A stretch of 40,562 bases of DNA from Verrucomicrobiales bacterium (GCA_024636835.1 JAGXGH010000005.1:1-40562); one strand, 5' to 3'. Shown: positions 1 to 28,573, numbered from the stretch's first letter. The notes: generated from the sequence alone by a model not told the origin. Made by a program: numbers and translations.

Positions 1-3000
1 GTCTGGATGCCTTCCATTTCCTTGAACTTGAGAAGGTTGGCTTCGGCGCCGGTGGTGAGGGTTTGGCTCTCGCTCTGGTAGTGGTCGATGATGAGTTCGC
101 GGACTTCCTGGTGGGTCATGAGTGGCAGCACTTTTTCTGCGATGCGGTTCATGTTGCGGTAGGACCCTTGGAGCTTGAACGAGGGTTCGGTGCGGTAGGC
201 GTCTTCCTGTGCGGCGGACGCGATGTATTGGAGATTCACCCGCAGTATGGTGTCGCGCACGGTGTAGAGGTGGCGGGTGACTTTGACCATCTCGTCGATC
301 TCGGCGGGCGTGTAGTTGGATTCGAAGTCGACGCCTTCCTGGCTGCCGGATTCGACGATGCGCATGATGGCGTAAACGTCTTTCTGGCTGCGGCTGGAGA
401 GTTTGGAGAGAACGGGGTTGGACGTGAGTGAGTTCTCGACGTAGGACGCTTTGAATGCGGATTCATGGCCGCCGAGGATGTCGCCGAGGTTGTAGGTGTC
501 GGCGCGGTTGGCGAGCATGTCGGGGATCTGGAATTTTCCACCGGACTCGGTGTAGGGGTTGCCCGCCATGACGACGGCGACCTTTTTACCCCGTAGGTCA
601 TAGGTGCGCGCCTTGCCGTTGTAGACACCTTCGATCTTGCGTTGAGCGTCGCAGAGGGAGATGAATTTTTGTAGAAACTCGGTGTTGGTGTGCTGGATGT
701 CGTCGAGATAGATCATCACGTTGTCACCCATCTCGAGTGCGAGGTTGAGTTTGTTGACCTCTTCGCGGGCGGACATGTTCGGTGCCTCGCCGGGGTCGAG
801 GGAAGTGACGCTGTGACCAAGGGCGGGGCCGTTGATCTTCATGAAGGTGAGGCCCAATCTGTTAGCGACGTATTCCATCAAGGTGGTTTTGCCGTAGCCG
901 GGTGGTGAGACGAGCAGGAGCATGCCCATGCGGTCGGTGCGGGTGTCGACTCCGGCGGTGCCGAGCTGCTTGGCAAGGTTGTCGCCGACGATGGGGAGGT
1001 AGACGTCGTTGATGAGTTTGTTGCGGACGAAGGAACTCATGACGCGCGGCTTGAACTCGTCGAGTCGCATGCTGTCGCGCTTGGCTTCGGTGAGACGTTT
1101 TTTCTCCTGCTGGTAATGCTGGAAGGTCGGGACGTCGCGATGCTCGAAGACGCGGAGTTTTTCGAGGATGGCGATGTAGTCGCCCTGATAGGTGGCGTTT
1201 TCGAGGACGCCGTGCGACCCTTTCATGCCGGTGAGGCTGACGGCGGTGGGGACGTCGATGACGAGGCGGTGCTCGTAGCCTCCACGGGCGAGGTGGGCGG
1301 CGGCTTCGAGGAGCCAGACGTTGGACGTGGTGTGGTTGGGTGAGGTGTTGTGGACGTAGTCGGCCGGGAGGGTGGAGGTGTGGTAGCCTGTGAGCCAGTC
1401 GAGGGCGGTGGCGAAGGTGGTTAGGGGTGCTTGGTTGGGTGACTGGAGTTGTGCTTGGCTTGGCGGCTGGAAGCCACCGCCACTTTGGAGCAGTTCGTCG
1501 AACTCGTTGTCGAGGTTCTTTTGGACGAGGAAGGTGCGGAAGGATTTGAGGAGGGCGTGGGCCTCGGCGGAGACGTGGAATTCTTCGGAGGTGGAGAGCT
1601 CGTTGTAGAGGTAGGTGGCCGCAGAGCGGGCGAGTAGCTGGTAGCGGGTAGCGGGAAGCGAGGGTTGGTTTGCGTCGCGTTGCGACGGGGATGTGGTGCC
1701 GCCCGACACGTGCGGATTATAGAGATGGTCGGCAGCTTCCAGGGCGGTGGTGAGTTTTTCGATGAGGTCGGCTTTTTCGCCGTCGGCGGAGAAGGTGGAG
1801 CGCATGCGGCGATGGGATGCCATGCGCTGGGCGAAGTCTTCGCGCCCGGACCAGGTGAGCCAGAAAAGGATGGCCAGGGAACGGATGCGCGGCGGTGAGG
1901 AAAGGACGCCGAGTTTTTCGCGGATGGGAAGGAGGGCCTCGACGATGGCGGTGGCATCGACGTCGTGCACGCCTTTGGTGTAGCCTTCGGCGTAGCGGGT
2001 TTGCATGAAGCGTTGGACGCTTTCGAGTAGCGAGGGGCTGGTAGCTGGTAGGGAGGGGTCCGAGGTGGAGGTTTTTGGTGATTTGGTTGTGGAAGTGGTG
2101 GTGTCATCGCTCGGTGGGCGCGAGGGCGCACCCACTCCGTTGGGGAGCGCAGCGTTGCTGCTTTTTAGAAACTGGTAGGCTAGGTATTCGGCGCGATAGA
2201 CGCCGCGGTTTTCGGAGACGACTTCCTGATCCCAGACGTCGCGGGTGGCGAGGAAGGATTCGTCGGTGATGGCTTCGAAGAAGTTGGTGCCGCCGAGGTG
2301 GAACCCCATGACGTCATCGCGGGCGATGACGGTGAGCTCGAGCTCCTGGGTGTTTACCGAGAATGCGTGTTTGCCGAACTTGAGGACGTTCTGGCCGTCG
2401 ATGAAGAGATCCTTGCGGTCTTTTAAGGCACGGACGGCGTCTTCGCGGATGGTTTTGAGACGGGTTTGGATGTCGTCGGCTTTGACCGACTCGTCCATCC
2501 CGGTGAGCTCGTCGATGATGTCGCGGACTTTGTCGATCATCAGATCGCCGGCGAAGTAGCCGTTGATCTCGTTGATCTCCTTGAACCCGGAGAGACGGTT
2601 TTTGATGCCGCCAAGAATGCGCTCGGCTGATTTGACGAGGGTGTTGGCACGTTTGTTGCGCTTCTCGTTGATCTGCTGCTTGCGGGTATCGAAGGCGGCG
2701 TAAACTTCCTCACGCTTGTCGCCGAGTTCTTCGATGTATTCGTCAAACTCGGCGAAGCGACCTTCCAACTCTTCGAGCTGGACCATGACTTTGGTGAGGT
2801 ATTCGTCGCACTTGTCGGCGGTGTCGCAGAGGTCGAGGTAACTGCTGACGGCTTGGCCGAGCAATTTCACCTGGGCACCGAACTGACCTGCACCTTCAAC
2901 TTTGGAGAGAGCTTTGCGCTTGTTCTTCAGCTCGACGCGGGTGGCGTTGAGCGTGGCGTAGATGGTCGAGATGCTATCGATGATCCTCGTGGTCTCGGTG

Positions 3001-4950
3001 GCGTCTTCGATTTTGAGGTTACTGACCACGTCGATGAGCATTTCCAGCTCGCGCCCGGCATCGTCGATCTCTTTGCCGAGTGCATCGGCGTCGATGACTT
3101 TGGTCAACTTCGACACGGCGGCACCGTTTTCGTTCACCTTGGTGCGGTAGGGGTCGAGCGATTCTTCGAGTAGGAGAAAGTCGACGGTTTTCCCGGAAAC
3201 CATGTCGGTGGCATCGCTGACGCGGTTTTCCAATTGATCGACGAAGTCGGTATCGATGTAGCGCACTTCTCGCAGGCCGATGACTTCACCGCGTAAGGTG
3301 CGCAGTGCGCCGAGTTGTTTGACGAACCCGAGGATATCATCTGGCGGCGAGTGTTCGGCATCGCGCAGTAGACGTTCGGACGACTTGGAGATTTCGGCAA
3401 TCCGGTCGCCGGCTGACTGACGGAGACGGCGGACTTTATCGAACTCGCTGATGGCGGAGTTGGCGGCCTCGTTGATCTGTTTGAGCGGTTCTGCGAGGTT
3501 GTGGGCTTCCGGTTTGGCAACCCAGAAATAGGCGTCGATGACATCGCCAGTGCGCTTGACCAGATCGATGTAGAGATCGCCAAACGAGTCGTCCTTGGCG
3601 AGGAGTGTGAGGATTTCCCGGCAATCCGCCATCGCGCTGACGAGGTCGGGGTTACCGATTTTCGCGAGGAAGGAGTCGCTGCTCGTTTGCTGTGAAACGA
3701 CGGCTTCATCGCTGAGATACGGCGTCTGCCAAACTTGTAGCGTATGGTATTTCTGCGGTTGGTCTTCGGTTTTGAAGTAGATGAGCTCGCCGCTATCGAA
3801 GACGGAGTACCCGCTGCAAAGCACCGGGTTGTCGATGCCGCGTTGGATGAGGTTGTAGCTGAGCAAGACGTAGTCGCCGGTCTCGCGGTTGTAGAAAACG
3901 AACAGCGTGTCCTCGCCATTGGCGGAGATGACACGACGCTCGAAGCGCATGTTGAACAAGCCGTGATCGAAGGTTTTTTTCTCACCACTAAGCAAGTAGT
4001 AGCCGTTGGCGAAGATAACGCCGTGATCGTCCGGGAGGAGGACGCAGGAATCTCCGATGGCATCGATGCGTGTGACCTCGCTGGTCTTTTCGTTGAAGAT
4101 GAAGTGGCGGGTTTTTTCCTCGCGGTAGGGACGGATGCGAAGAAGGACGAGGTGGCCAATCACGGCGTAGTCGATCTCGGCGTCGTCGAGGGTTTGGTCG
4201 ACCTCGTCGACGGGCTCTGAGTAGATGCCAGCGCCGTCGGAGGTGTTGTCTTCGATTTTGATGGTGAGATCGCCGCCGACGGTTTCGACGAAGACTCTGT
4301 CCTCGATGGAGACGTGTGGGAACTCGCCTGACCGCTGCATGTCGCGGTTGGCGCGTTTCCAATCGAACTCGTGCTGAGCGGGGAAGGAATATTCGTGGTC
4401 GAAGCGGTTGCCGAGGTATTCGAGTGTGCCGTCGCCTTTGACGAGCCACTTGAAGGTCTTGATGTCGGTGACCTCGCGACCGATCCGCATCGCCATATAG
4501 AGGTTTGGCCCGATGCTGCGGAATTTTACGAACGAGGTGTTTTTGTAGTATTTGTAGAGGTAGCCGAAATCCTCTGCGAAGGTGCCGCTGCCCGCTCGGC
4601 CGGTGAGCACGGATTCAGGCTCGACTACAGTGAATGTGTGCGAACTACGATCGTAGTCGTAGACGTCGAACACATCGCGAATATCGGTGGTTTGTTTGAG
4701 TCCGAACTGAATGTTGTAACCAAAGATAAACCGCCCTTTTCCGATGGGCACCATGTCGCGCGGAACGCAGTTGTGATCGGTGGTGATACGCTCGGTGGCG
4801 ATCAACGCGGACTCGACGGCGCCGAAGAGGTCGCGGCGGTCGGCGTTGAGAGCATCGAGACGCTCGCGGAGAACCACGGCGTGTTTATCCAGACGGGCAC
4901 GAATGACTTCGTAGGCGCCGCCTTCTAGTTGGTTGGTGGAGTCGGGCATT
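1..4950 (-). CDS. Giant AAA+ (AAA_5/MoxR-type) ATPase-domain protein, more than 1650 aa. The 3' end (C-terminus) is cut off by the window start; the ATG is at 4950..4948.
   Basis: Hand translation of the minus strand gives an uninterrupted reading frame from the ATG at 4948-4950, which sits directly after an in-frame TAA, down to nt 1 (1650 codons). Walker A 'MGMLLLVSPPGYGKTTLMEYVANRLG' lies at forward ~870-950. Walker B is 'VMIYLDDIQH'. The sensor region 'VAVVMAGNPYTESGGKFQIPDMLANRADTYNLGD' is the MoxR/AAA_5 signature. A Thr/Ser/Pro low-complexity linker lies at forward ~2040-2130. The plus-strand ORFs in the track (63..431, 3744..4220, 4371..4928) have the V/D/G/F-rich composition of antisense artefacts. 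Confidence 0.75.
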
Positions 4951-5064: not shown

Positions 5065-5508
5065 CTAGCTTTGGAGACGGGGTGGAGATGCGTTGGGAAT
5101 TGGATGTTTTGTTTCTAGGACGATGCGTTCCCATTCTAACTTTGGGTAATGCCCGAAGTTGAGGAGGATGCCAAGTTTGAGACCGGTTGCCCTTAGGTAG
5201 TTTTGAATTTGGGCGCGGTGTTCGTCGTTAAGCTTGCTAACAGATTTGAGCTCTAAGATGATTTTTTGGTAGGCGATGAAATCTGGGCGCAAAAATTGGG
5301 TAAGTTTCTGACCCTTGTATTCGAGTTCAACTTTAGGCTCATGCACGGCGGGAATTTTCTGAAGTGAAAACTCCCGCCCCAGACATTCGTGATAGATGGG
5401 TTCACTCATTCCGCAGCCCCTTTCTCGGTATACTTCGAAGCAGGCTCCCATAATGGAGTAACTCTCTTCTTTGTATAGGAGGCTCATCGGCTTGTTTTCA
5501 TCGTTCAT
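5065..5508 (-). CDS. GxxExxY family protein (PD-(D/E)xK nuclease-like small protein). Its GC is clearly lower than the flanks.
   Basis: 147 aa. The motif 'MGACFEVYRERGCG' matches the GxxExxY signature near the N-terminus. The ATG at 5506-5508 was verified. GC is ~45% against ~60% in the surroundings. Confidence 0.8.
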   Translation of the reverse strand: MNDENKPMSLLYKEESYSIMGACFEVYRERGCGMSEPIYHECLGREFSLQKIPAVHEPKVELEYKGQKLTQFLRPDFIAYQKIILELKSVSKLNDEHRAQIQNYLRATGLKLGILLNFGHYPKLEWERIVLETKHPIPNASPPRLQS

Positions 5509-5549: not shown

Positions 5550-7592
5550 CTACCCTTTCAGCACCTCGGACGCTTTGGCGTCCTTGAGGCCGAATTTTTC
5601 GGCGGCTCCTAGGAGGCCGATGAGTTCGTTGCGGGTGTTGCCGTCGGCTAGTGGGATCATCTTGCCGAGGAGGGCGGCGACGCTGAGGTTTTTGATGTCC
5701 TCGCTGGCGATGCCAAACTGGCTGGTCCAGTCCTTGATCTTGGCGCGGAAGTATTCCGGGTCGCCGTTGAAGAAGGTGTCCTTGACGTCTTCGAGCACGC
5801 GGCTGTTGTTGACCAGGCGGTCGACCGCTTTGCCGTTGGTGATCGCATTGGTGATGCGGTCGAAGAACTGAGTCTCGCCACCGACGATGTCGATGTTCGA
5901 GTGTTTGAGCGCTTCGCCAACGACGATCGCTTGCTGCTCGGCAATCTGACGATGAACGTCGATTCCTGCGAGTTCCACGGCCTTCTCTTTTTCGAGCTTG
6001 AGCTTGAACTCTTCGTGCTCTTGACCGGCTTCTTCGAAGAGCTTCATGGCGTCGGCCTTCTGCTTGATCGCATCGGCATCTGCCGAGCCCTTGGCGCGGA
6101 CCACTTCGGCTTCGCCCATTCCGACTGCGGCGGATTCCTTGGCAATCGCTTCGGCGAGTTCTATTTTTGCTGCGGCCACTTTGGTCGAGGCGGTTTGTTC
6201 GGCTTCGGCTCCGATGATGAGCTCTTCAGCTTTCATCTCGGCAGCTGACTTGGATGCTTCAGCGGCCTTGGTGACGTTGTAGGCTTCCTCCTCGGCTTTG
6301 AGTTTTGCAGCGGCTTTACGTGCTTCGGCGAGTTGGGTTTCGCGAATGAGGATGTCCTGGGCATCCGCTTCGGCAAGGGTGACCTTGACCTGCTTCTCAC
6401 GATCGGCACCAGCGAAGGCTTCGGTGTCCTTGATGCGCTCTTGCTCGATGACGACGGTCTTTTCAAGCGCAACGCGATCCTTGATCACTTCCTGAATATT
6501 CTTCCGCTCGATCTCGAGGGCCTTCTCTTTTTCGATCTGCTTGAGCTCGGTGACGCGTTCGCGCTCGATGGATTCAAGCATACGCTCGCGTTCCACGCGC
6601 TCGAGTTCGACGCCGTCGGTGCGCTCTTTGTTGCGTAGGGCAACGAGGACTTGGCGCTGCTTGTTTTCTTCGGCGATCTGCAAATCTTCGTCGGCACTGA
6701 TGCGTGCACGCTCGGACTTCTGACGCTCTTCTTCGCGAACTTTCGCGGTTTCTGCCTCTTCGCGAGCTTGGACGATCTTGACTTCGCGTTGTTGGCGGGC
6801 TTCGGTCTCGGCCAGTTGACGCTCGAGTTCGAGGATGGCCTCGCGGGCTTCGACGTCCTGTTGCTTGATGACCTTTTCCTTATCGCGTTGGATGTGGTTG
6901 GAAAGTTTGGCCTGGCTGGCAGTGAGCTCGTGGATCTTCTTAATACCCTGGGCATCGAGAATGTTGTCCGGATCGAGCATTTCGATCGGCGTTTGCTCGA
7001 GGTAATCAATCGCGGCGTCATCGAGGACGAAGCCGTTGAGGTTGGTTCCGATCACTTTGATGATGTCGTCACGGAAGGTATCGCGCTCTTCATAAAGCTC
7101 CGAGAAATCGAATCGCTTACCGACTGTTTTCAAGGCTTCGGAGAACTTGGCATCGAAGAGTGCGCGGATTTCCTCTTCCGAGGAGGCTCGTGCACAACCG
7201 ATCGACTCGGCGACGCGCAACACGTCGTTTGTCACATTGTTCACGCGGACGAAAAACGCGACTTTGATGTCGGCACGGAGGTTGTCCTTACAGATCAGAC
7301 CGTTCTTTCCGGTGCGGTCGACCTCGAGGCGTTTGACGGAAATGTCCATCATCTCGCCGCGATGGATGACCGGGTATACGGCGAGGCCGGTGAATGTCAC
7401 CTTGGTCTCACCGATGCCGGTGCGGATCAGAGCGGTGCCCTTTTCCACTTTTCGGAAAACACTGGCGTAAAACGCCAGGAATCCGATGATCAGAATGACG
7501 ACACACGCTATGGCGATCGTGAAGACTCCGCCCGGAACGGTAAGGGCGATTATTTGATGGGACGCGAGGTCCGCGGTTATTGCGCTATTCAT
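5550..7592 (-). CDS. yqiK: Flotillin family (SPFH/band-7) membrane protein, YqiK-like
   Basis: 680 aa with an N-terminal TM helix, an SPFH core (...GTALIRTGIGETKVTFTGLAVYPVIHRGEMMDISVKRLEV...) and a long Glu/Ala/Arg-rich coiled coil. It sits immediately downstream of a YqiJ/NfeD-like gene, as in E. coli yqiJK. Confidence 0.9.
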   Translation of the reverse strand: MNSAITADLASHQIIALTVPGGVFTIAIACVVILIIGFLAFYASVFRKVEKGTALIRTGIGETKVTFTGLAVYPVIHRGEMMDISVKRLEVDRTGKNGLICKDNLRADIKVAFFVRVNNVTNDVLRVAESIGCARASSEEEIRALFDAKFSEALKTVGKRFDFSELYEERDTFRDDIIKVIGTNLNGFVLDDAAIDYLEQTPIEMLDPDNILDAQGIKKIHELTASQAKLSNHIQRDKEKVIKQQDVEAREAILELERQLAETEARQQREVKIVQAREEAETAKVREEERQKSERARISADEDLQIAEENKQRQVLVALRNKERTDGVELERVERERMLESIERERVTELKQIEKEKALEIERKNIQEVIKDRVALEKTVVIEQERIKDTEAFAGADREKQVKVTLAEADAQDILIRETQLAEARKAAAKLKAEEEAYNVTKAAEASKSAAEMKAEELIIGAEAEQTASTKVAAAKIELAEAIAKESAAVGMGEAEVVRAKGSADADAIKQKADAMKLFEEAGQEHEEFKLKLEKEKAVELAGIDVHRQIAEQQAIVVGEALKHSNIDIVGGETQFFDRITNAITNGKAVDRLVNNSRVLEDVKDTFFNGDPEYFRAKIKDWTSQFGIASEDIKNLSVAALLGKMIPLADGNTRNELIGLLGAAEKFGLKDAKASEVLKG

Positions 7593-7645: not shown

Positions 7646-8311
7646 TTAGTCAATGTTGGTTTCGCTGCCGATGCGGCGGGCGAGATAAGTTCCGGTTTCC
7701 TTGTCACAGGCGAAGAGCACCACATGCTCACCACGATGGACTGGGTCGCCGGTTGAGAGTTTGGCGCTGAGGAGTGCCGGTGCGCCGTGCTCACGCGGCA
7801 CCTCGACCTGGCCGCCGTTTTCGTCGAGAGTCAGCGAAACAACCAAGGCTTCGCGACCGAAGACGGGTTCTTGGTCGTTTTCACCTCGACGCAGCGCCTT
7901 GAATAGCGGGCGTAGCGGTTGAGTGATGAGTTTTGCCAAAGTTACACCGACAATGAACGACCCGGCGCAGATCGCGCCTGCGAGCAGGTTGTTTTGATCC
8001 GGATTGACTACCGATGTCGTGATCACGCTGGTGACCCACATGGTGAGGAACAGAATAGTCAACACGATCATCAGCGGCACTTCGGACGCGTTCATGAATC
8101 GCAAGGTTTGACCAACGATGCTGTCGGCAAAGTTGCTTCCGCCAACGTCAGCGTCGACATCAATGTCAACGTCGTTGTCAAAATCGAAGTCCAAGAAATC
8201 GAAGTCGAGCAAGCCGATGATGTTTAGCAGCCAGTAGAGCATGCAGAACCCCAAGAGAAGGGTGATAGGCATGATCCATGGAGAGGTTGAGAGTTCCCAG
8301 ATTTCTTTCAC
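7646..8311 (-). CDS. yqiJ: YqiJ/NfeD-like inner-membrane protein, the partner of flotillin. The start is ambiguous: GTG at 8311 or ATG at 8272.
   Basis: 221 aa with two hydrophobic helices, a poly-acidic DFDFLDFDFDNDVDIDVDAD linker, and a C-terminal soluble beta-rich (OB-like) domain. It is in an operon with the flotillin gene. Confidence 0.65.
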   Translation of the reverse strand: MKEIWELSTSPWIMPITLLLGFCMLYWLLNIIGLLDFDFLDFDFDNDVDIDVDADVGGSNFADSIVGQTLRFMNASEVPLMIVLTILFLTMWVTSVITTSVVNPDQNNLLAGAICAGSFIVGVTLAKLITQPLRPLFKALRRGENDQEPVFGREALVVSLTLDENGGQVEVPREHGAPALLSAKLSTGDPVHRGEHVVLFACDKETGTYLARRIGSETNID

Positions 8312-8567
8312 ACTACCGATATAAGGCAGTGTTAGGAATGATGCCTACTACAAAAGACTAGGAAATTTGGAATGGAGCATGATTTTTTGGTAGCATGGGC
8401 ACTTTGGGAGATTGGCGGGTTCTGAGGTGGTTTGGAAGGTGTTTGGGCAGTTGATAGGTCTTATCAGTCCTATAGGATCTATTTGTGTTGTTAGAGATTT
8501 TGGGTTGCTTGGTCGTTGGCTCAGGGTTGCTATTGCTTGGGCGGGTGGGCTAGGGTCGCTGACCTTG

Positions 8568-10724
8568 ATGTCTGACGACCTTCCATCCATCCGAGCTGAT
8601 CAGGCGCTTGCTGATTTGCCTTCATTACCTGCGAAACTTCGCCAGGCGATGGATGAGTGTGGGTGGCGGACGGTCGCGGATGTGTTGAACCATTTGCCGC
8701 GTCGCTATGAGGACAGGCGGCGGTTTGAGCGCTTTCCGGCGGACCCGGGCGAGGCCGCGGTGACCTTGCATGTGATCGTCGATGACGTGCGGACGCTTCG
8801 CTTTGGATCGAAGCGGCGGATTTTTGAGGCAACATTGGTTCCCGGCGAGTCGGGCGGGATGCCAGGGCAGCAGATCACCGCCCGGTGGTTCAATTTACCG
8901 TTCATGAGCAAGGTGATAGCGGTCGACCAACAGCTGATCGTTCACGGCAAGGTGAAGTTGGTGGGAAAACGACTCGTTATCGATCATCCGGAGACAGAAG
9001 TTATCGTGAGTGGAAGCGAGTTGGAAGCCGACCCGGTTTCGCGGTCGGTTCATCTGCGCCGTATCGTGCCGGTCTATCCTTTGTCGAATGGTCTGCAGCA
9101 ACGTCCGCTACGCGAATTTATCTTCGAAATGCTCAGTCGTATTGACCCCGAGGATACGAGCTTTCCCGATCGTGTTCCCGCCGATGCGTGGACGGAGGAT
9201 GCGGAAAACGTGGTGGAACGGAAGCCTGCTGTTGAGCTCTATCGCGCCGCGCATTTCCCGCCGGATATGGAAGCGATGGACGCCGCGCGGCGGGTGTTGG
9301 CTTTGGGGGATTTGTTCCTGCATCAGGTGCATGTGGTGGATAGAAAACGCCACCACCGCGCGCTCGACGGCAAGCGTCATGCTGGTCGTGGTGTGCTGTT
9401 GAAAACTTTTGCCGATGCCTTGCCGTTCGCACTGACGGGTGCGCAGACGCGTGCGGTGCGTGAAATTCGAAACGATTTGAAGTCGGATCAGCCGATGAAC
9501 CGATTACTCCAAGGCGACGTGGGTTCCGGAAAAACGGCGGTGGCAATGGCTGCCGCGATGTTGGTGGTCGAGGACGGTTGGCAGGTGGCGGTGATGGCTC
9601 CGACGCAGATCCTCGCCGAGCAGCATTTTCTCAACTTTCGCAAGGTGATGGAACCGCTGGGGATTCGTATTTCACTGCGTACTGGTGCGGGGATTCAACA
9701 CAGCCACGATGACGAGGAAGATGCGCAAATCGTTATCGGCACGCATGCGCTGCTTTTTGATAACGACGAGCTACTGCGTCGCGATTCCCTGGGGCTGGTG
9801 ATCGTCGATGAGCAGCATAAGTTCGGCGTGGCGCAGCGTGCGCGTTTGAAGGAAGCCGGCGAGACGACGTCGGTGCCGGATGTGTTGGTGATGACTGCCA
9901 CCCCCATTCCGCGCACTTTGCAGATGACTGTTTACGGGGATCTGGATGTGTCGATTATCGATGAGCTTCCGGCGGGTCGAGGGAAGATTATCACGGGCAT
10001 TCGTGTAGCGCCGAAAGTCAGTGAAGTGACGGCATTTCTCAAAGAACAGCTCGAGCTCGGTAGGCAGGCCTACTTCGTTTATCCTTTGGTTGAGGAGTCG
10101 GAATCGAGCGATGCAAAAGCGGCGACGACGGCGCATGTCGAGTGGGCGAAGCGTTTGTCGAAATATGAAGTCGGGCTGCTCACTGGTCGGATGTCTGGCG
10201 AAGAAAAGGACGCAGTGATGACGCGGTTCCGCCGTGGTGAAATTGATCTGCTGGTGAGCACGACGGTGATCGAGGTGGGTGTCGATGTGTCGAACGCTAG
10301 CGTGATGGTTGTGCACGATGCGAACCGCTTTGGTCTCGCGCAGTTGCATCAGTTGCGTGGGCGGATCGGGCGGGGCGAGCACAAGTCTTATTGTGTGTTG
10401 TTGCTCGATAAGAAGCACCGTGAGTCAGCTGGGAAGTTGGCGATCCTTGCGGAGACGCGCGATGGGTTTCGGATTGCGGAAGAAGATCTACGCCAGCGTG
10501 GCCCCGGTGATGCGCTGGGCACGGCGCAGTCGGGATTGCCTGATCTACCAGCGAGCACGCGGGCGTATCTCGGCGATACGCGATTACTTGTCGCCGCTCG
10601 CGGCATGGCGGAAGCTTTATTTGATGCTGATCCAGACTTGGGCAACCCGGCGCACGTGAATATCCGCGAGGAACTTATTCGTCAAGGCGATCCGCTGGGT
10701 AGTCGGTTTGCGCATATTGGTTAG
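8568..10724 (+). CDS. recG: ATP-dependent DNA helicase RecG. The track ORF starts at 8412, but the ATG at 8568 is the more plausible start.
   Basis: Helicase motif I 'GDVGSGKTAVA', motif II 'VIVDEQHKFGV', and 'LVMTATPIPRTL'. The C-terminal 'VHDANRFGLAQLHQLRGRIGRG' is typical of RecG/Mfd-type SF2 helicases. The extra 52 N-terminal residues from 8412 are hydrophobic and atypical. Confidence 0.9.
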   Translation: MSDDLPSIRADQALADLPSLPAKLRQAMDECGWRTVADVLNHLPRRYEDRRRFERFPADPGEAAVTLHVIVDDVRTLRFGSKRRIFEATLVPGESGGMPGQQITARWFNLPFMSKVIAVDQQLIVHGKVKLVGKRLVIDHPETEVIVSGSELEADPVSRSVHLRRIVPVYPLSNGLQQRPLREFIFEMLSRIDPEDTSFPDRVPADAWTEDAENVVERKPAVELYRAAHFPPDMEAMDAARRVLALGDLFLHQVHVVDRKRHHRALDGKRHAGRGVLLKTFADALPFALTGAQTRAVREIRNDLKSDQPMNRLLQGDVGSGKTAVAMAAAMLVVEDGWQVAVMAPTQILAEQHFLNFRKVMEPLGIRISLRTGAGIQHSHDDEEDAQIVIGTHALLFDNDELLRRDSLGLVIVDEQHKFGVAQRARLKEAGETTSVPDVLVMTATPIPRTLQMTVYGDLDVSIIDELPAGRGKIITGIRVAPKVSEVTAFLKEQLELGRQAYFVYPLVEESESSDAKAATTAHVEWAKRLSKYEVGLLTGRMSGEEKDAVMTRFRRGEIDLLVSTTVIEVGVDVSNASVMVVHDANRFGLAQLHQLRGRIGRGEHKSYCVLLLDKKHRESAGKLAILAETRDGFRIAEEDLRQRGPGDALGTAQSGLPDLPASTRAYLGDTRLLVAARGMAEALFDADPDLGNPAHVNIREELIRQGDPLGSRFAHIG

Positions 10725-10779
10725 TGATCGCCTAGACAATCCGATTGACCCGTGGCGATAGACTACTGACCATTCTATT

Positions 10780-12279
10780 ATGCAGGACATTCTTCGCAGA
10801 TTCGCTATTGCTGCCGCCATAATCGCTGTGGCGACCGGGGCGATTTACATGCTCCACTTTAAGAGCGACAACTATTCCTTCTTCGATTTTATCAAGGGAG
10901 AGGCCCCGCCGCGCTTTGAAAGCGAGGCGTTTACACTCGCGCCGTTTCCTGCCATGCAGTCCTCGGATGTGCCGATACTCGATGCCTTGAATCAAGAAAT
11001 CGCAAAACTTACATCGGCTGTCACGCCTGCTGTGGTGTCGATTGAAACGTCGACTGAGATCAATTTGCCATCTTACGCTGGTGCGTTGAATCGCCCGCGA
11101 TACGGTGAGCTCGATCTCGGGTCTGGTGTGATTGTTTCTTCCGAAGGGCATGTCCTCACCAACTACCACGTTGTGAAAGGAAAAAGTCGGATTCGTGTAA
11201 AGCTCAGCGATGCCCAAGGACGCAGCGTGCTTTACCCGGCGATCATCATTGGCAGCACGCAGAACCTCGATATCGCGGTGTTGAAAATTCAATCCGAGCG
11301 CACTGACTTCACTGCGCTAAAATTGGGCGACTCCGATCGACTGAATGTTGGTGAGATGGTGTTTGCTATCGGTAACCCATACGGACTTCAGGAAACGGTG
11401 ACGCAGGGGAATATCTCCGCGCTCGACCGGAGGATTTCCGATGGCGGCCCGACTTATCTACAGACCAGTGCGCCGATCAACCCGGGCAACTCGGGTGGGC
11501 CTTTGGTGAACATTTACGGTGAGGTAATCGGGATCAATTCCATCGTTGTTCGTGGGACGGGCAAGCAAGCTGCACAGGGGATTGGGTTTGCCATCCCGGC
11601 GAACGACGCGTCGGTGGCGTTACAGGCGATTTTGGAAAAAGGCGCACCGGTTCTCGGATATGTCGGTTTGGCGTTTAGTGATATTCCTGCGGAGATTCGT
11701 GCCCGATACCCTGACGCGAAGGGTGTGTTTATTGACCAAGTGTTTGCCGGATCGCCTGCGGAGAAGGCGGGCATCCAAGCACACGATATGGCGATGACAT
11801 TCAATGGAGAAGAGATCCAATCAAAGCGCCAGCTTGCGCGTTTGATTCACCATACTGAGCCGGGGGCGAAGGTGGAGATTATCACGCGTCGGCGTGGTGA
11901 AGTGATGAAGTTCATGCTCGATGTCGAGAGCTTGGCAGACCAGGGGGTGGTCTCCGAAAGACCTGATGATGAGTCCTCGGAATTGCCGCAATCGGGGAGC
12001 AAGGTGGACAGGGATTTTTTGCGTCACTTCGGTGTGCAGGTTGGCCCCTTGTTTACTGGAAGCCCCAGCGGAGTGAAGGTTGAGAGCGTTCGTAAAGGGG
12101 GTAAAGCCGCGTTGCTTGTCCAGCCGGGTGACTTCATTACTGCGGTGAATGATACGGTGATCACCACTCCTGCAGAGTTCAACCGAGCGGTGCTTCGCGG
12201 GCGTGATCAGCAGATCATCGAGTTACGTATCATGCGCAGCGGAAGGTTGATCCGCGCAGTGATTGAGCCGCCGTTTTAG
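10780..12279 (+). CDS. htrA: HtrA/DegP family periplasmic serine protease (trypsin-like domain plus two PDZ domains)
   Basis: N-terminal TM/signal. Catalytic triad context: 'VLTNYHVV' (His), 'DIAVLKI' (Asp), 'GNSGGPLVN' (Ser). It is followed by two PDZ-like regions. Confidence 0.9.
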   Translation: MQDILRRFAIAAAIIAVATGAIYMLHFKSDNYSFFDFIKGEAPPRFESEAFTLAPFPAMQSSDVPILDALNQEIAKLTSAVTPAVVSIETSTEINLPSYAGALNRPRYGELDLGSGVIVSSEGHVLTNYHVVKGKSRIRVKLSDAQGRSVLYPAIIIGSTQNLDIAVLKIQSERTDFTALKLGDSDRLNVGEMVFAIGNPYGLQETVTQGNISALDRRISDGGPTYLQTSAPINPGNSGGPLVNIYGEVIGINSIVVRGTGKQAAQGIGFAIPANDASVALQAILEKGAPVLGYVGLAFSDIPAEIRARYPDAKGVFIDQVFAGSPAEKAGIQAHDMAMTFNGEEIQSKRQLARLIHHTEPGAKVEIITRRRGEVMKFMLDVESLADQGVVSERPDDESSELPQSGSKVDRDFLRHFGVQVGPLFTGSPSGVKVESVRKGGKAALLVQPGDFITAVNDTVITTPAEFNRAVLRGRDQQIIELRIMRSGRLIRAVIEPPF

Positions 12280-12308: not shown

Positions 12309-14105
12309 TTAACGTTCGCCGAGAGAGAGTAAAAACCGTGCGGCTTCGAGGCGTGGGTTGCTGATTTCAATCCGCAGTTTGCCGTTGCCGATGCGCTGGT
12401 GGATGGCGTCGACAATCCCTTGGCGAACCAGGCGTGCTGCGCTAGCGATGCGCCTCGGGGCGCTGGCAAGATACATGGTGACCATAGCGATGGCGACGAC
12501 TGGCGCGATGCTGAGGAGGAGACTGGTGATCCAGAGGGATGATGGCGGCATTGGGAAGCGTTGCCACTGACCGGCGACGGATTCTTCCAAGCTTTGGAGA
12601 CCCTCGAAGTAGGCGCTGTAGAGGCTGATGAGTGGACCAAGCAGTAAGCCCCAGAATGCGAGCGTGGCCATCAGTCCGCCGAGCCAAAGGAAGGGGCTGG
12701 CGAGGCGTCGGGTGCGCACGGTGTCGCTGATCGTTTTGTGCGACTCGCTTTCTAGCGCCGCGATGCCGTGCACGCTGATGTTTCCGGCTGGGCTTTTACT
12801 GGCATGATTGGACTGGTTGGTGGTGCTTGCCAGTGCATCGCTGAAGGTGCGGAGGTCTTCCGCATAGGCGTCGCGCAGCAGGGTTTCGGTGCGATCGGTG
12901 AGGCGTGATGAAGTGGATTCAAGCCGTCCGGTCTCGCGGATATTTTTCACCGACTGGACCGCGGTCATGACCAGGGAAGGCACACTGCCAAAGGCGGCGA
13001 AGATGACTTTGTCCCACGCGCCGAGAGTCAGACCAAGAATTCCAAGCAGTGAGCGAAACGGGAAAAATAACATCGATGTGCGGTCGAGGGCATCACCGCG
13101 GAAGCGTGAACGCATCGCCGCGCGCAGCAGTGCTTCCTCGCCGACGAGGCCGTGTTCTACAATGTCTGGGAACGAGGTGGTGAGTTGCTCAAGCCTGTCC
13201 ACCGGCGCGCCGAGTCTGGCACGGAAGTCGCCCAACTCATCAGCGAGCTCACGCTGAGCGAAGGTAATTCGTTCGTTGAGTTGAATGTCGAGGCTCTGGT
13301 GGAGTGACGTGCTCTCGGATAAAAGTTTCGTTAGCGTCTCAGCGAGGTGAAGTCGTGCTGCTTCGCGTGCTGTTTGTTCGCCAGCGACTCCGGCATCAGG
13401 CAGGAAAATCGCCGGATAGAATTGTGAAGAGGGTGCGAGTTTCGCCCAACGGTCGATTTCATTTTGGCAGTCGCTGACGGTATTATTTGCAGGAGCTGCT
13501 TGACCATTCTCGGGGCGGAAACGAACCACCGGCACGATGATCGATCCATTCATCGATGCGACAAACTGCGCCAGTGAACCGTCGCGTATTTGACTCACCG
13601 AAGTGGCGAGCAGTTTTACTGGCGACGAGCTGAGAGCGACACTGGAAAGCGCGCCGAGTGTTGGGTCGTGGTCTGAGTATCCGGGCGAATCGGCGATCGC
13701 GTAGGGTGCTCCGAGGTCGAGTAGTGCACTCTCGGGAACTTGCACGAAACGTTCGCCGTGGTTCATGGCGGCGAATGGCTGTTTCGTGCCGACCCAGATT
13801 AGTTCGTGTGTTCGGTCGTCGGCATTTTGCCCTGATGGCAGCATGGCGCGGGTTTGATCAAACGCGGGCTCGTCACTGAGTATCGTACGTGCAAGCCAAC
13901 TCTTGCCTTCGCCGATTCGACCTACGATAGCGATAGTAGTGACGTCGGTGGATTGGCTGGCGCGGAGTCGGTCGCAGTCGCGCCGTAGCTCGGCGGTGAT
14001 TCTGTTGAGGCGGAGGGTGCTTCCGGAATCCTGTCCGAACAACAGCGCCGCGGATTGATCCACGCGGTCGGCGAGACTTGGGCTGAGTGTTGGAGTGGAT
14101 TCCAT
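12309..14105 (-). CDS. Dynamin-like P-loop GTPase with a C-terminal 2-TM membrane anchor (paralog B)
   Basis: 598 aa. G1 'IAIVGRIGEGKSWL' is dynamin-type (GxxxxGKS). G3 is 'IADSPGYSD' (DxPG). A helical middle region follows, then two strongly hydrophobic segments (LASPFLWLGGLMATLAFWGLLLGPLISLY and LWITSLLLSIAPVVAIAMVTMYL) and a roughly 75-aa tail. The ATG at 14105-14103 was verified. There are only 9 bp to the upstream paralog. Confidence 0.7.
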   Translation of the reverse strand: MESTPTLSPSLADRVDQSAALLFGQDSGSTLRLNRITAELRRDCDRLRASQSTDVTTIAIVGRIGEGKSWLARTILSDEPAFDQTRAMLPSGQNADDRTHELIWVGTKQPFAAMNHGERFVQVPESALLDLGAPYAIADSPGYSDHDPTLGALSSVALSSSPVKLLATSVSQIRDGSLAQFVASMNGSIIVPVVRFRPENGQAAPANNTVSDCQNEIDRWAKLAPSSQFYPAIFLPDAGVAGEQTAREAARLHLAETLTKLLSESTSLHQSLDIQLNERITFAQRELADELGDFRARLGAPVDRLEQLTTSFPDIVEHGLVGEEALLRAAMRSRFRGDALDRTSMLFFPFRSLLGILGLTLGAWDKVIFAAFGSVPSLVMTAVQSVKNIRETGRLESTSSRLTDRTETLLRDAYAEDLRTFSDALASTTNQSNHASKSPAGNISVHGIAALESESHKTISDTVRTRRLASPFLWLGGLMATLAFWGLLLGPLISLYSAYFEGLQSLEESVAGQWQRFPMPPSSLWITSLLLSIAPVVAIAMVTMYLASAPRRIASAARLVRQGIVDAIHQRIGNGKLRIEISNPRLEAARFLLSLGER

Positions 14106-14114
14106 GAGTGTAAT

Positions 14115-16199
14115 CTAGTGGCTGAAGTCGTCCGCTGACAATACGGATAAGGCGTCGGTTGGTCGCCACAGTCGGGCGTCGATCAAGGGGGTGACAGTAG
14201 CGGTTTTTACGAGTTCATCGCTGGGGGGGAGAGGAAACGTGGACTTTTTTCCCTGAGCGTCGGCGAAGGGGATCATCGGTGTTTTATTGTCGATGCTGCG
14301 AGGGAGTCCAAAGGCGTCGCAGGAAAATGCGAACAGACGCGATAGATAGGGCAGGGTGTTTTTGTCGATAAGCTCTTTTCGGAACCCGATGTAGGCAGCG
14401 CCCGCTCCGCCGAGAGCAACGGCGAGTGCGGTGCCACCATGGATGAAAGACGAAATCGCGGTGGCGGCATAGATCGTCGCGCCTCCGTCGACAGCCGCGG
14501 TGACGACTCCGCCGAGAGCTGCGGCGCTACCGAGTGCTCCGAGGATCGCACGGCTGCCGATGGTGAATTTTTTCCATCCGCCGAACCCCTTCCACATGGT
14601 CTTAGCCATTGCGTCGAGTGCTTGCTGGTCGAATTTCTCGATGGGGTTTTCACTGAAATTTTTGACGATGGTTCGCCAGGCCTCGAGGAGTTCTTCCTCT
14701 GGAATTCCGGCCGGACACCAGCGTTGGGCGTGCATTTCACGGGCGAGTGATTCGCTATTGGCGATTTTTAGCGAGCCAAAGTGCAAATGGTCGCGGACTT
14801 TACCTTCGATGTCGCTGAGCTTTCCTTTTAAGCTGAGTTTAGTGATCAAGTTCCTGCCTTGGGCGAGCGCACGGTCAAACGGTCTTGCGAGTTTCAGCGA
14901 TACGCGGAGTGGCAATGGTGCGGTGCGGATGAAGCTCTCGTTGAGCGCCGCAGCGAACTGCGATGATGGAATCTGCAAGGGTTCGCCAGTTGCGCGATCG
15001 GTCATCATGGCGACGCAAAACTCAAGTAGCCCGGCGTGTGTGGATGTGACTTTGGTCGTCGATAGTCGTAGCCATTCGTGTAGCGCGTGTCTGGCTTTGG
15101 TGATCAATTTCTCTAGCTCCGTGCGATGGTCATCGATCTTGATCTGCTGCAAATCGGCGATTTCGAGGTTGGCTGGTAGGGAGAGGAGATCAGACTTTGT
15201 CTCGACACCTTCGTCGAGCGGGTAGAATTGCGGTAGCTCATTACTATCCGCGTCGTAGTTTTCTTTAAAGCGTTTTACGAGGTGGTCGGGAGTAAGGTTG
15301 CGCCATCCGGGTCGTCCTTCGCGCCCCTCAATGGCAAAGTCGAAAGCACCATAAATATGATCGCGGGAGATCTGGAAGCGCTCGATGAGACGTGTGACAT
15401 CTGCGTCGTCGAGAGTCCTGGTAGGCTGGTCTTCCTCTGGTCGGATCATATTGATCAGCAGGAAAAGCGGAGCAGATGCCATCCGTTCGCGTAGGGCGGT
15501 GAGCATGGATTCAACGAGTCTGTCGCGGATGGCATCGCGACGCCAGACGAGGAGAAATGCAGAACAAACGCGTGCGGCGGCTGCAAGGAAGTCGAGTCGT
15601 GCGTTCGCGGTTCCGCTGTCGCTGTCGGCGTCTTGAGTTTGTACGTCCGGGCAGTCGAGTAGCGCGGCACCGATGTTATCGAGTGCGGGGTTGCCGGCGA
15701 TGAGTGGAATGGCGAGCTGGTCGAGATGGTCGCGTCCGCTGGCGTATTGTTGTGCGGCACGCGTTGGATCGTCGTCGAGAAATTCCACGCCACCGGAGTG
15801 AGCGGTGTCGAGTAGATCGAGCAGTGTGCGCTTTTTCGCAGGATCGTTGAGCCACGCTGATGGCACCCAATAGACAAAGCGATGGGTGCCCGTAGCGCTG
15901 GCCTCGCCACGGGGTACGCGTGCTCGCCCTGTGGCGCTGAGAAATGATGCGACGACGCTGGACTTACCGGCGTTGAGTTGGCCGGTCACGGCGATGATCG
16001 GTTGACCGAGCATCGCCTTCGCTGCGGCAAGGCTTTGCGCTGCCCTCCCAAGTTCCTTGGCGAGCGTTTCGTGCCCCGCTGCTTCCAGGGCGTGGAAAAG
16101 CTTCAGCGATACTCCGTCGTCGGGCCACATCGACTCAACGACGATTGGATCCATCGTTGAGTGTTGATCTGGTGGGGCGTTCGACATTGTGCATAGCAT
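14115..16199 (-). CDS. Dynamin-like P-loop GTPase with a C-terminal glycine-zipper membrane hairpin (paralog A). The start is uncertain: TTG at 16223, ATG at 16199, or ATG at 16187.
   Basis: About 690-702 aa. G1 'IIAVTGQLNAGKSSVVASFL' closely resembles the dynamin family 'GxxSxGKSSVLE'. The G3-like motif is 'LLDCPDV'. A long helical stalk is followed by a Gly/Ala-rich hydrophobic hairpin 'ILGALGSAAALGGVVTAAVDGGATIYAATAISSFIHGGTALAVALGGAGAAYIGF' and then a roughly 90-aa tail. Confidence 0.7.
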   Translation of the reverse strand: MLCTMSNAPPDQHSTMDPIVVESMWPDDGVSLKLFHALEAAGHETLAKELGRAAQSLAAAKAMLGQPIIAVTGQLNAGKSSVVASFLSATGRARVPRGEASATGTHRFVYWVPSAWLNDPAKKRTLLDLLDTAHSGGVEFLDDDPTRAAQQYASGRDHLDQLAIPLIAGNPALDNIGAALLDCPDVQTQDADSDSGTANARLDFLAAAARVCSAFLLVWRRDAIRDRLVESMLTALRERMASAPLFLLINMIRPEEDQPTRTLDDADVTRLIERFQISRDHIYGAFDFAIEGREGRPGWRNLTPDHLVKRFKENYDADSNELPQFYPLDEGVETKSDLLSLPANLEIADLQQIKIDDHRTELEKLITKARHALHEWLRLSTTKVTSTHAGLLEFCVAMMTDRATGEPLQIPSSQFAAALNESFIRTAPLPLRVSLKLARPFDRALAQGRNLITKLSLKGKLSDIEGKVRDHLHFGSLKIANSESLAREMHAQRWCPAGIPEEELLEAWRTIVKNFSENPIEKFDQQALDAMAKTMWKGFGGWKKFTIGSRAILGALGSAAALGGVVTAAVDGGATIYAATAISSFIHGGTALAVALGGAGAAYIGFRKELIDKNTLPYLSRLFAFSCDAFGLPRSIDNKTPMIPFADAQGKKSTFPLPPSDELVKTATVTPLIDARLWRPTDALSVLSADDFSH

Positions 16200-16313
16200 G
16201 CGTTCAGTGCGCCCGCCATGCAAGCGTCGAGCGTTGCTAGAAGAATGCGGAGATTGGTGACGATGGCGGAGCGTCTGCCCGGATTGTTGATCGAGGTGAT
16301 GAACTGAGGGGTA

Positions 16314-16913
16314 TCAGCGTTCGAGCAATTGCAAGGCCATCACGCGGATGGTTGCTGATTCTGCTGCGGCTGCGACGACAGGTCTGCCGACCGTTGGTGC
16401 CACTCCTGCGTCTGGTTGGCTGGTAAACACATACCACTCGCCGAGTTCCATCACCAGGTCGAAGCGTTTACGCATGGTACGAAACAGTGGCTGCGCGACC
16501 GAGGTGTCGCGGCCCTCGATGATCTTGAAGAGCTTGTAGCCAATGATCCCGCGAAATTCATACTCCCCGCTGATTTTAAAAAATCCATCGGCATCTGTGG
16601 CGATCACATTGCCAGTGCAACGTGTGCCGACTTCATGGTCCGACCATTCGACGACGGTTCCGTCGGTATCGATTTCCTTGACCGCGCGGACAGGTGACAT
16701 TTTGCCGAGCAAAAATTTGTCCTCCTTCACCGTGGTAACCCAGCGTGTTGCACCGGCGATTGAGCCGTTGTCGAGGGCGCTTGAGATGGCTGCATCACTG
16801 GTCTCTGTGCCATGGAGTGCGAATTCAAGTACCTCGACTTCAATTTCACCGAGGACGTCGGAGTAAGGCGTAACCGCGAGTAGCAGAATGGCTAAGAGAC
16901 GGACGGAATTCAT
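16314..16913 (-). CDS. Secreted hypothetical protein, about 200 aa. The track ORF extends to 17066, but the ATG at 16913 gives a clean signal peptide.
   Basis: 'MNSVRLLAILLLAVTPYSDVLGE' is a signal peptide. There are no recognisable motifs. It is on the same strand as, and immediately upstream of, the GTPase pair, with a 90-bp gap. Confidence 0.5.
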   Translation of the reverse strand: MNSVRLLAILLLAVTPYSDVLGEIEVEVLEFALHGTETSDAAISSALDNGSIAGATRWVTTVKEDKFLLGKMSPVRAVKEIDTDGTVVEWSDHEVGTRCTGNVIATDADGFFKISGEYEFRGIIGYKLFKIIEGRDTSVAQPLFRTMRKRFDLVMELGEWYVFTSQPDAGVAPTVGRPVVAAAAESATIRVMALQLLER

Positions 16914-16985
16914 TGCTGTAACGCTTCCCGTATCACGCGGCAGAGTCAATACCGAAGGGGTGTGATTTTTTTCGGTGGATGGGCA

Positions 16986-17123
16986 GCCGCAGGCTTTTGA
17001 GTGCGGCTGGTACTGCCGCTTTTGTTTTCTTTTGCGCGACGATGGAGCATGGTCAGGAAACACCAAGGCATGTCCGCCTTGCCGTGAAAGCGGTGATGCT
17101 CACCGCACTCAAAAGCCTGCGGC
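16986..17123. repeat. Perfect 20-21 bp inverted repeat CCGCAGGCTTTTGAGTGCGG (16987-17006 and 17103-17122) flanking 96 bp, with a nested 7-11 bp inner stem (GCCGCTTT / AAAGCGG). This forms a roughly 138-nt hairpin, MITE-like.
   Basis: Read directly from the sequence. The right arm is the exact reverse complement of the left arm. It lies in the intergenic region between the LysR stop (17161) and the start of the secreted-protein gene (16913). Confidence 0.7.
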
Positions 17124-18093: not shown

Positions 18094-18306
18094 AGCGTGA
18101 CGAGCATGACGGCAGAAGGTAGCGACGGGCAATGGGAAAATCGTGGGGAGGAGACTGAATCTGTTGGTTCACAGAAGAATTGCTTTTGAACGACTTATCC
18201 GATGGGAAATCGCTTGCATCGCTGGGGAATCGGTCAACACTGAAATCTGCTGGGCTTCTGAAGTGTATCCGAAGCCTAAACTTTCACTCGAAATCTACCT
18301 ACCGAT

Positions 18307-21776: not shown

Positions 21777-21947
21777 CTTCGTAGGATGCCAAAACATCCG
21801 TAAAATATCAACGCAAAAGAGTAAGTGAAAGACGCTGCCGCGTATTGCCTTGGTCGCGTAGGATCGATATATTCCTGAACAAGGATTGAGTATCAGCCAT
21901 GAGATTTGTCCTTCCTGAAATCGAACTAGCACTTACTCAAAACCATT

Positions 21948-22760: not shown

Positions 22761-22788
22761 TTCACGCTACAAAAACACTCATCTCATC

Positions 22789-22819
22789 AAGCCGCCATGG
22801 CCATCGGCCATGGCGGCTT
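22789..22819 (+). promoter_or_regulatory. Perfect 12-14 bp stem hairpin AAGCCGCCATGGCC-atc-GGCCATGGCGGCTT between the PEP-CTERM gene and the hydrolase gene. It is an attenuator or partial-terminator candidate.
   Basis: Direct read. It starts 29 nt after the stop at 22758-60 and is followed by the T-rich 'tatgtttgcttc'. It overlaps the false N-terminal extension of ORF 22797. Confidence 0.5.
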
Positions 22820-22832
22820 ATGTTTGCTTCCC

Positions 22833-25367: not shown

Positions 25368-25543
25368 TGCACGGTCTGTCGTCGCGCCGAGTGCTCTGCT
25401 TTTTACCAATCACGGTGTGAAAAGGTCGCCTCATATCCGGAAATCACCCGATCGACGCTTAGAGCGAAGAATAAAACGTCCAGACGTATTGTCGCGCGAT
25501 ATTATTTCCGCTAAAGTCCTCATATCCGTCAAGAAACAGAGCC

Positions 25544-26377: not shown

Positions 26378-26410
26378 GTTTTTCGGGAAAGGATCTACTT
26401 TTCAGATCAA

Positions 26411-26443
26411 CGCCGCTGTGGCTCCGGCTCCGGCGGCGTTTTT
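26411..26443 (+). terminator. Rho-independent terminator after PEP-CTERM gene 2
   Basis: CGCCGC...GCGGCG stem, followed by TTTTT at 26439-26443. Confidence 0.6.
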
Positions 26444-28511: not shown

Positions 28512-28573
28512 CGCGCTGCCACCAAGATTCCTTGATCGATCGATAAACCCTATCAGCCAATCCGATAGTCCTC

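Follow-up and report, generated by a model that had tools for sequence, protein, structure and literature searches.

What does a bacterial ATPase of more than 1,600 residues do, when NCBI and UniRef name its family 'DNA repair ATPase' and its gene follows two genes for membrane proteins? The question is raised by the left end of a contig from a Verrucomicrobiales bacterium (GCA_024636835.1, JAGXGH010000005.1), the whole of which, 40,562 bp, was analysed and is called the window below. A preliminary description, made from the DNA alone, had singled out the gene as an unannotated giant frame for a MoxR-type ATPase with a long N-terminal region of unknown function. The best explanation of the evidence is that the protein serves as the large soluble subunit of a membrane module, conserved and encoded by three genes, which would act in envelope stress and in which a YqiJ/NfeD-like protein and a flotillin-like protein of the SPFH type are joined by an ATPase with a propeller, a coiled coil and an AAA+ domain; we put the probability of this explanation as a whole at about 0.6. 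Its parts differ in firmness: the membership of the ATPase in its family and operon is hardly in doubt, and the proposed remodelling of membranes stands at even odds.

The ATPase gene is read on the minus strand, where an open reading frame (ORF) runs without a stop for 1649 codons from an ATG at 4949 to window position 3 and leaves the window at its left edge. The longest open runs in the remaining two minus-strand frames are 341 and 284 codons, and the length of the ATPase frame is far above chance expectation. The start at 4949 is supported because homologues begin at the same methionine (MPDSTNQLEGGAYEV in the window, MPDTDPKLEGGAYEV in P0001, the closest homologue). Re-translation thus bears out the single giant gene of the preliminary description and moves its start, given as 4950, by one nucleotide; the frame from 4950 is full of stops, and the count of more than 1650 codons becomes 1649. 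The supplied ORF track indeed holds nothing except short overlapping ORFs over 1-4950, because the mechanical list leaves out any ORF that is still open at the edge of the sequence. The window is a complete contig, and its end cuts the gene at the 3' side. Residue 1649 pairs with residue 1570 of P0001 (1691 residues, 78% identity), and therefore some 120 C-terminal residues are absent and the full protein would have about 1,770 residues; the consensus of the missing tail can be seen in the family alignment (A1), where it has the form ...RWAQIKK...LLGGAGENDP...VPVEVDIKV. Three low-complexity insertions set the protein apart from P0001, at residues 931-967, about 1084-1105 and about 1157-1172.

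Relatives of the ATPase are numerous and colinear with it. A search at E<=1e-10 finds at least 4,690 proteins; the best 120 of them come from Verrucomicrobiota, and all but a few of these span the whole query, with 57-78% identity and a length of 1,630-1,720 residues. A scan with a degenerate pattern, restricted to one genome per species, found a relative encoded in at least 592 species genomes, of which the best 80 belong to Verrucomicrobiota, Planctomycetota, Bacteroidota, Desulfobacterota, Kiritimatiellota, Omnitrophota and Clostridia, at 45-77% identity; the Clostridial branch was confirmed by a separate search. The closest relatives, at 77-78% identity, are in metagenome-assembled genomes of uncultured Verrucomicrobiae. 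Identity is 57-78% inside Verrucomicrobiota and 45-53% in other phyla. When the N-terminal 1,200 residues were used alone, 1,340 clusters were found (50% identity level, E<=1e-3), with full-length members of 1,590-2,036 residues and identity down to 27%. Judged by its sequence, the protein of the window is a typical, truncated member of a widespread family of about 1,700 residues that occurs in at least eight phyla. Its size and architecture had been thought unusual, a view that thousands of end-to-end homologues of 1,600-1,900 residues contradict. Strong full-length homology to a well-characterised family had also been envisaged as a possible refutation of the earlier reading: such homology exists, to a family that is known from catalogues and from computational description, and not from experiment.

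The N-terminal 1300 residues or so, which had been said to contain no nameable motif, match two Pfam families, DUF3686 over its full model with 606 bits (cut-off 25) and DUF7902 with 89 bits (cut-off 26). AlphaFold2 (AF2) was given alignments of 40 homologues, Verrucomicrobial and Clostridial, and the protein was modelled in two parts. The model of residues 1-960, with a mean predicted local distance difference test score (pLDDT) of 80.9, consists of a helix (residues 7-42), an all-β domain, a long helical region, a small β unit and a disordered tail; pLDDT is mostly 85-94 in the propeller region and below 50 in the linker. In the model of residues 961-1649 (mean pLDDT 82.1) a helical domain is followed by a long connecting helix, the AAA+ core and a helical lid. 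The leading Foldseek matches of the N-terminal half in PDB all contain a β-propeller (clathrin terminal domain, Elp1, IFT-A, paraoxonase, prolyl oligopeptidase; E 6e-6 to 1e-3, probability up to 1.0), and the helical region matches spectrin-like structures. The predicted domain order is thus an N-terminal helix, a propeller, helical bundles, a small β domain, a linker, a helical middle domain and a MoxR-like AAA+ module. The Thr/Ser/Pro-rich linker and the long helical stretches reported earlier are both found in it, as are the other motifs that had been quoted: GYGKTT, IYLDD, the block AGNPYTESGGKFQIPDMLANRADTYNLGD, and KYYKNTSFVKFRSIGPNLYMAMRIGREV (KYYKNTSF...GREV), which occupies residues 133-160. 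Since one homologue is named 'phage shock protein A' by JGI, a PspA-like nature of the helical region was considered as well, and rejected; Pfam and Foldseek show no PspA_IM30 there.

The earlier call of a MoxR-like AAA+ domain holds: the nearest structural neighbours of the module are NorQ and CbbQ, of the MoxR clade, and a β-hairpin precedes sensor 1. At the sequence level, Pfam assigns residues 1344-1421 to the generic AAA family (PF00004, E 4e-7, 31 bits), and AAA_5 lies right at its threshold, with a score (22.1 bits, E 1.7e-4) that barely differs from the gathering cut-off of 22.0 and is below that of generic AAA. When PDB was searched by sequence, first singly and then as a profile of 40 sequences, the only matches were of about 45 residues at the P-loop, to p97, VAT and RuvB, and no relative of the ATPase has a solved structure; an NCBIfam scan of the protein likewise gave only P-loop or coiled-coil noise.

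In an alignment of 77 sequences from several phyla, the AAA+ region is the best-conserved part of the protein, and K1354, D1416, D1417, N1464 and R1482 are invariant in it. The propeller, most of all its residues 212-247, and the helical regions are well conserved, the linker has a high gap fraction, and the small β domain keeps G859, F863, N866, H884, G887 and T888. Variability is confined to residues 900-1250, save for an invariant motif near residues 985-998. This motif of the middle domain reads R-Y-x-E-x-Y-x-K-G-x-H-D-x-D (RYAEGYTKGVHDVD; window 1956-1997, minus strand), with Y990, K992, G993, H995, D996 and D998 invariant across about eight phyla, and it may serve in binding or in catalysis. 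The Walker B motif of AAA+ proteins usually reads D-E (hhhhDE); here D-D (IYLDDIQH, residues 1416-1417) is kept across the whole family.

The gene order on the minus strand is YqiJ/NfeD-like, flotillin-like, GxxExxY, ATPase. The preliminary description had noted that the ATPase gene is co-directional with flotillin and NfeD genes, and had asked for the conservation of this neighbourhood. It is conserved: of the related loci, 63 extend 3.2 kb or more upstream of the ATPase gene, and among these a flotillin-like gene lies upstream on the same strand in 60 and a YqiJ-like gene in 55; the ATPase gene is commonly separated from the flotillin-like gene by 10-130 bp. Genes outside this cassette are unrelated from locus to locus. 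The loci with the cassette come from the seven groups named above, Verrucomicrobiota to Clostridia, and the linkage of the ATPase to two membrane proteins is conserved in at least eight phyla. The GxxExxY gene, which had been listed among the neighbours to be checked, fares differently. Besides the window it is found in about seven close Verrucomicrobial loci (L001, L003, L004, L008, L009, L010 and L012) and in no other phylum; we therefore do not count this lineage-restricted gene as a core component of the system; it was apparently inserted into the operon in this lineage alone, perhaps as a selfish element. Apart from it, no conserved gene was found downstream of the ATPase gene or in the flotillin-ATPase gap of the related loci.

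Three parts make up the flotillin-like protein: a transmembrane segment at the N-terminal end, a putative and divergent SPFH/Band-7 region at residues 48-200 or so, and a long coiled coil rich in Glu, Ala and Lys. NCBI and JGI call its relatives flotillin family protein or YqiK, its NCBIfam match to FloT is weak (E 2e-4), and a profile search of PDB found QmcA alone (E 9e-4). It is 38% identical over 587 residues (E 1e-114) to an orthologue on the Pseudomonas plasmid pQBR103, and that orthologue passes Pfam Band_7 (E 9e-11) over the region aligned with the window protein; the SPFH domain of the latter is supported only transitively, through this orthologue. As to the YqiJ-like protein, its orthologue in Hymenobacter is annotated as DUF1449.

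In two phyla the cassette stands directly behind a gene for PspA. In 15 loci of Bacteroidota it is preceded by a divergent S24/helix-turn-helix (HTH, LexA-like) regulator, a protein of the CesT/Tir-YbjN type and a PspA/IM30 gene (E 4e-41), and the annotated record of a Hymenobacter plasmid (L084, NZ_CP010056.1) has a LexA-like regulator, a Tir-type chaperone and PspA, and then the cassette. The Pseudomonadota are represented by pQBR103 (L083, NC_009444.1 85452-102127), a 425-kb plasmid of Pseudomonas fluorescens SBW25, in which the cassette follows an array of PspA, rhomboid, DUF2491, DUF350, DUF1190 and glutathionylspermidine-synthase-like genes; PspA, genes of the YjfK/L/M/C type (polyamine operon), the YqiJ-like protein, the SPFH protein and the ATPase are encoded in one same-strand array. 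These two plasmids are genetically accessible test beds. On pQBR103 the genes concerned bear the tags PQBR_RS00460-00470, and further carriers open to genetic work are Proteus mirabilis, Vibrio campbellii, Clostridium intestinale and members of Hymenobacter and Flavobacterium.

The same operon is covered by a survey of the phage-shock-protein system (Ravi, Anantharaman, Aravind, Gennaro et al., mSystems 2024, PMC11237479). It describes a CesT/Tir-PspA dyad, a partner with transmembrane, band-7 and flotillin parts, a protein with three transmembrane segments typified by YqiJ/YuaF, and an ATPase with a β-propeller, a coiled coil and an AAA+ domain, and it predicts a chaperone-like role in membrane dynamics; abbreviated operons that lack PspA are said there to be more widespread, and might cooperate with PspA encoded elsewhere. 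The supplementary context given for Dokdonia donghaensis (ANH61663.1) equals our Bacteroidota loci gene for gene. A link of PspA with band-7/FloT and NfeD was noted also by Popp et al. (2022, PMC9239133). In the window no PspA is adjacent to the cassette, and therefore it carries the abbreviated form of the operon.

Table 1. Features of the window discussed in the text (residue numbers are those of the encoded protein)
Feature	Residues	Window position	Strand	Basis
Giant ATPase ORF, 3'-truncated	1649 codons	3..4949	-	Stop-free frame, Pfam domains, full-length homologues at 45-78% identity
Pfam DUF3686 (PF12458)	27-475	3525-4871	-	Model positions 2-448 of 448, E 3.2e-182
All-β domain, ~27 strands, predicted β-propeller, DUF3686 core	48-408	3726..4808	-	AF2, Foldseek, Pfam
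Helical region, predicted spectrin-like three-helix bundles or coiled coil	414-848	2406..3710	-	AF2 model, Foldseek
Pfam DUF7902 (PF25472)	597-679	2913-3161	-	E 2.2e-25
Small β domain	855-893	2271..2387	-	AF2 strands, moderate confidence
Thr/Ser/Pro-rich low-complexity linker	~931-975	2025..2159	-	Insertion relative to P0001 (gap opposite residues 931-967)
Variable helical middle domain	~974-1221	1287..2030	-	AF2 C-terminal model; carries RYAEGYTKGVHDVDA (residues 985-999)
AAA+ α/β core	~1340-1520	390..932	-	
Walker A, SPPGYGKTT	1348-1356	882-908	-	GYGKTT is residues 1351-1356
Walker B, VMIYLDDIQH	1411-1420	690-719	-	IYLDD is residues 1413-1417; D-D at 699-704
β-hairpin ahead of sensor 1	~1438-1451		-	
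Sensor-1 N1464 and candidate arginine finger R1482	within 1462-1490	480-566	-	Block AGNPYTESGGKFQIPDMLANRADTYNLGD (AGNPYTESGG...NLGD)
AAA+ helical lid, incomplete	~1548-1649	3..308	-	AF2 helices; ~120 conserved tail residues past contig end
GxxExxY / PDDEXK_3 small protein	147	5065..5508	-	Pfam PDDEXK_3 E 8e-38; TIGR04256 E 8e-37
Flotillin-like (YqiK-type) membrane protein	680	5550..7592	-	Similarity to pQBR103 orthologue, names of relatives
YqiJ/YuaF-type (NfeD-like, DUF1449) membrane protein, first cassette gene	221	7646..8311	-	Pfam YqiJ_N E 2.8e-5, above cut-off
XylR/AraC-type regulator		20619-21932	-	Carbohydrate cluster
Three ORFs without Pfam match	second ORF 856	21948-22760, 22797-25367, 25544-26377		Carbohydrate cluster
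GH28-like protein with Golvesin_C domain		26709-28511		Carbohydrate cluster
Sodium:solute symporter		28574-30307		Carbohydrate cluster
FAD_oxidored protein		30304-32580		Carbohydrate cluster

Upstream of the cassette and divergent from it, on the plus strand (8412-12279), lie recG (770 residues, 8412-10724) and a gene for a serine protease of the HtrA/DegP type (499 residues). Farther to the right, three consecutive large ORFs (598, 702 and 250 residues; 12309-17066, minus strand) have no Pfam or NCBIfam match and are adjoined by a LysR-type regulator (17161-18132, minus strand), and a putative carbohydrate-utilisation cluster occupies 20619-32580. The GC skew tracks the direction of transcription throughout the window: measured on the plus strand, it is positive from 1 to about 22 kb, where the minus strand carries the genes, with values up to +0.30 across the ATPase gene, and negative at 22-28 kb, where genes turn to the plus strand, so that the coding strands are C-rich relative to G.

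Four other readings of the ATPase have to be weighed against a membrane module. That the long frame represents a pseudogene, an artefact of fusion or more than one gene has a probability close to nil; truncation at the contig end and the three insertions relative to P0001 are all that speaks for it, and it is refuted by the stop-free 1649 codons, the intact catalytic residues and a colinearity that extends from P0001, end to end, to homologues of the same length in many phyla. That the protein is a DNA repair ATPase, perhaps cooperating with the neighbouring RecG helicase, is what the name in NCBI and UniRef and the Pfam description of DUF3686 (PF12458, 'ATPase involved in DNA repair') suggest, and the divergent recG gene, the regulator of the LexA family (S24 and HTH) that diverges from the operon in Bacteroidota and a weak P-loop similarity to RuvB could be taken in the same sense. 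Yet RecG adjoins the cassette in none of 82 related loci (HtrA does so only in L008 and L009), and its adjacency in the window is accordingly discarded as evidence for repair; the similarity to RuvB comes to about 45 residues at the P-loop, at E of about 1e-4 to 1e-3; Pfam and NCBIfam detect no DNA-binding, nuclease or helicase domain in the ATPase; the genes conserved beside it encode membrane proteins and PspA; and we found no literature that supports the name. A role in DNA repair is thus most unlikely. Scarcely better are the prospects of a conventional MoxR-type chaperone, acting with a von Willebrand factor A (VWA) partner in cofactor insertion or enzyme activation, as do NorQ with NorD and CbbQ with CbbO, with the flotillin linkage being incidental. 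NorQ and CbbQ are the best structural matches, and the block from sensor 1 to the arginine, read by eye, appears to resemble the MoxR pattern; the ATPase is, however, five times larger, and no VWA domain was found among the neighbours in the window or in the conserved upstream, gap and downstream gene clusters that were scanned or annotated.

Defence islands often contain large multidomain ATPases beside genes for membrane proteins and small nucleases, and the ATPase could accordingly drive an anti-phage or other conflict system, or act as its sensor, with flotillin and YqiJ as membrane effectors and GxxExxY as a PD-(D/E)XK nuclease. The PDDEXK_3 gene does lie inside the operon of the window, and the cassette is carried by some megaplasmids, including pQBR103. 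On the other side, GxxExxY is limited to a few close relatives, and a search of PADLOC-DB 2.0, recommended in the preliminary description as a check for a listed defence system, gave no match at the level of a system, the best being LmuB (1.1e-6, coiled coil only) and IetA (3.7e-4, P-loop only). A search of 50,697 phage records gave no match, and one of 72,556 plasmid records gave only 13, most of them in chromids or in chromosomes labelled wrongly; the genes that recur beside the cassette belong to stress responses (PspA, polyamine genes); and identity drops with taxonomic distance, in the ranges given above for Verrucomicrobiota and for other phyla, and therefore fits mostly vertical descent. 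We consider a defence function improbable. Neither DNA repair nor phage defence is supported by anything that was examined.

Several observations weigh against the membrane module too. We found no experimental study of any member of the ATPase family in the literature, and physical interaction of the ATPase with the flotillin-like and YqiJ-like proteins is read from gene order only. The flotillin neighbour is absent in 3 of the 63 loci. The flotillin-like protein of the window has no Pfam match, Band_7 included, and Band_7 was found in just one of 22 orthologues; no homologue of PspA or CesT was found in the window (tblastn, best E 0.11). The template-modelling scores of the propeller matches are low, because the query is a multidomain chain of 960 residues. 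Finally, the D-D form of Walker B may make hydrolysis slow, regulated or switch-like.

If the membrane module is nevertheless the correct reading, the flotillin-like protein and its YqiJ partner would form a membrane-anchored oligomeric scaffold, and the ATPase, oligomerising through its AAA+ domain, would dock on this scaffold, on PspA polymers or on clients of the scaffold by means of its propeller and helical arm. ATP would then drive the assembly, disassembly or remodelling of the sub-membrane complex in envelope stress, by a logic akin to that of Vps4 on ESCRT-III or of FtsH inside the HflK/C cage. A bolder form of the proposal, tentative and in our estimate rather unlikely, makes the family the motor that is dedicated to the ATP-driven remodelling of flotillin and PspA (ESCRT-III-like) assemblies in bacteria, and thereby a functional counterpart of Vps4, in which a ring of the MoxR clade would grip the membrane scaffold through a module that, like those of clathrin and IFT proteins, places a propeller before a helical arm. 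If true, this would supply the ATPase that is seemingly absent from most bacterial PspA and flotillin systems; how flotillin and PspA assemblies are kept dynamic without a Vps4-like ATPase is a standing question, for which the family offers a concrete candidate.

The window by itself carries little weight here, as its ATPase is a typical truncated member and the operon is already described in the literature. The family merits attention, being large, spread over many phyla, strongly conserved and found nearly always with the flotillin/NfeD pair and often with PspA. A practical gain is the correction of the annotation 'DNA repair ATPase', which is probably misleading.

Among known systems, the closest is the operon of Ravi et al. 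(PMC11237479), whose ATPase, corresponding to DUF3686, DUF7902 and AAA, shares domain order, length and sequence family with that of the window. The window differs from it in minor ways only: in the lack of an adjacent CesT/Tir-PspA dyad, in the GxxExxY gene inserted before the ATPase gene, and in the ATPase itself, which has three low-complexity insertions and loses some 120 C-terminal residues to the end of the contig. The two upstream genes of the window are of the same type as the NfeD-flotillin pairs YqiJ-YqiK of E. coli and YuaF-FloT of B. subtilis, except that the putative SPFH domain of the window protein is too divergent to pass Pfam Band_7; the operons of E. coli and B. subtilis are not known to have an ATPase as a third gene. 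Close to the AAA+ module are also the MoxR family (NorQ, CbbQ, RavA; Pfam AAA_5) and the related AAA modules of dynein and midasin. Compared with the MoxR family, the ATPase has about 1,300 extra N-terminal residues (more than 1,649 residues in all, not 300-500), a Walker B with D-D instead of D-E, membrane scaffold proteins in place of a VWA partner, and a higher score on generic AAA (31 bits) than on AAA_5 (22 bits). The likeness to FtsH-HflK/C and to Vps4-ESCRT-III (PspA/Vipp1) is best taken as an analogy, with no homology beyond the AAA+ fold: unlike FtsH and Vps4, the ATPase lacks a protease domain, an MIT domain and a transmembrane anchor, and its AAA+ clade is MoxR-like and not classical. 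What the family has in common with these systems is the coupling of an AAA+ gene to the gene of an SPFH scaffold and, in other phyla, where it resembles Vps4-ESCRT-III, also to the gene of PspA, a member of the ESCRT-III superfamily.

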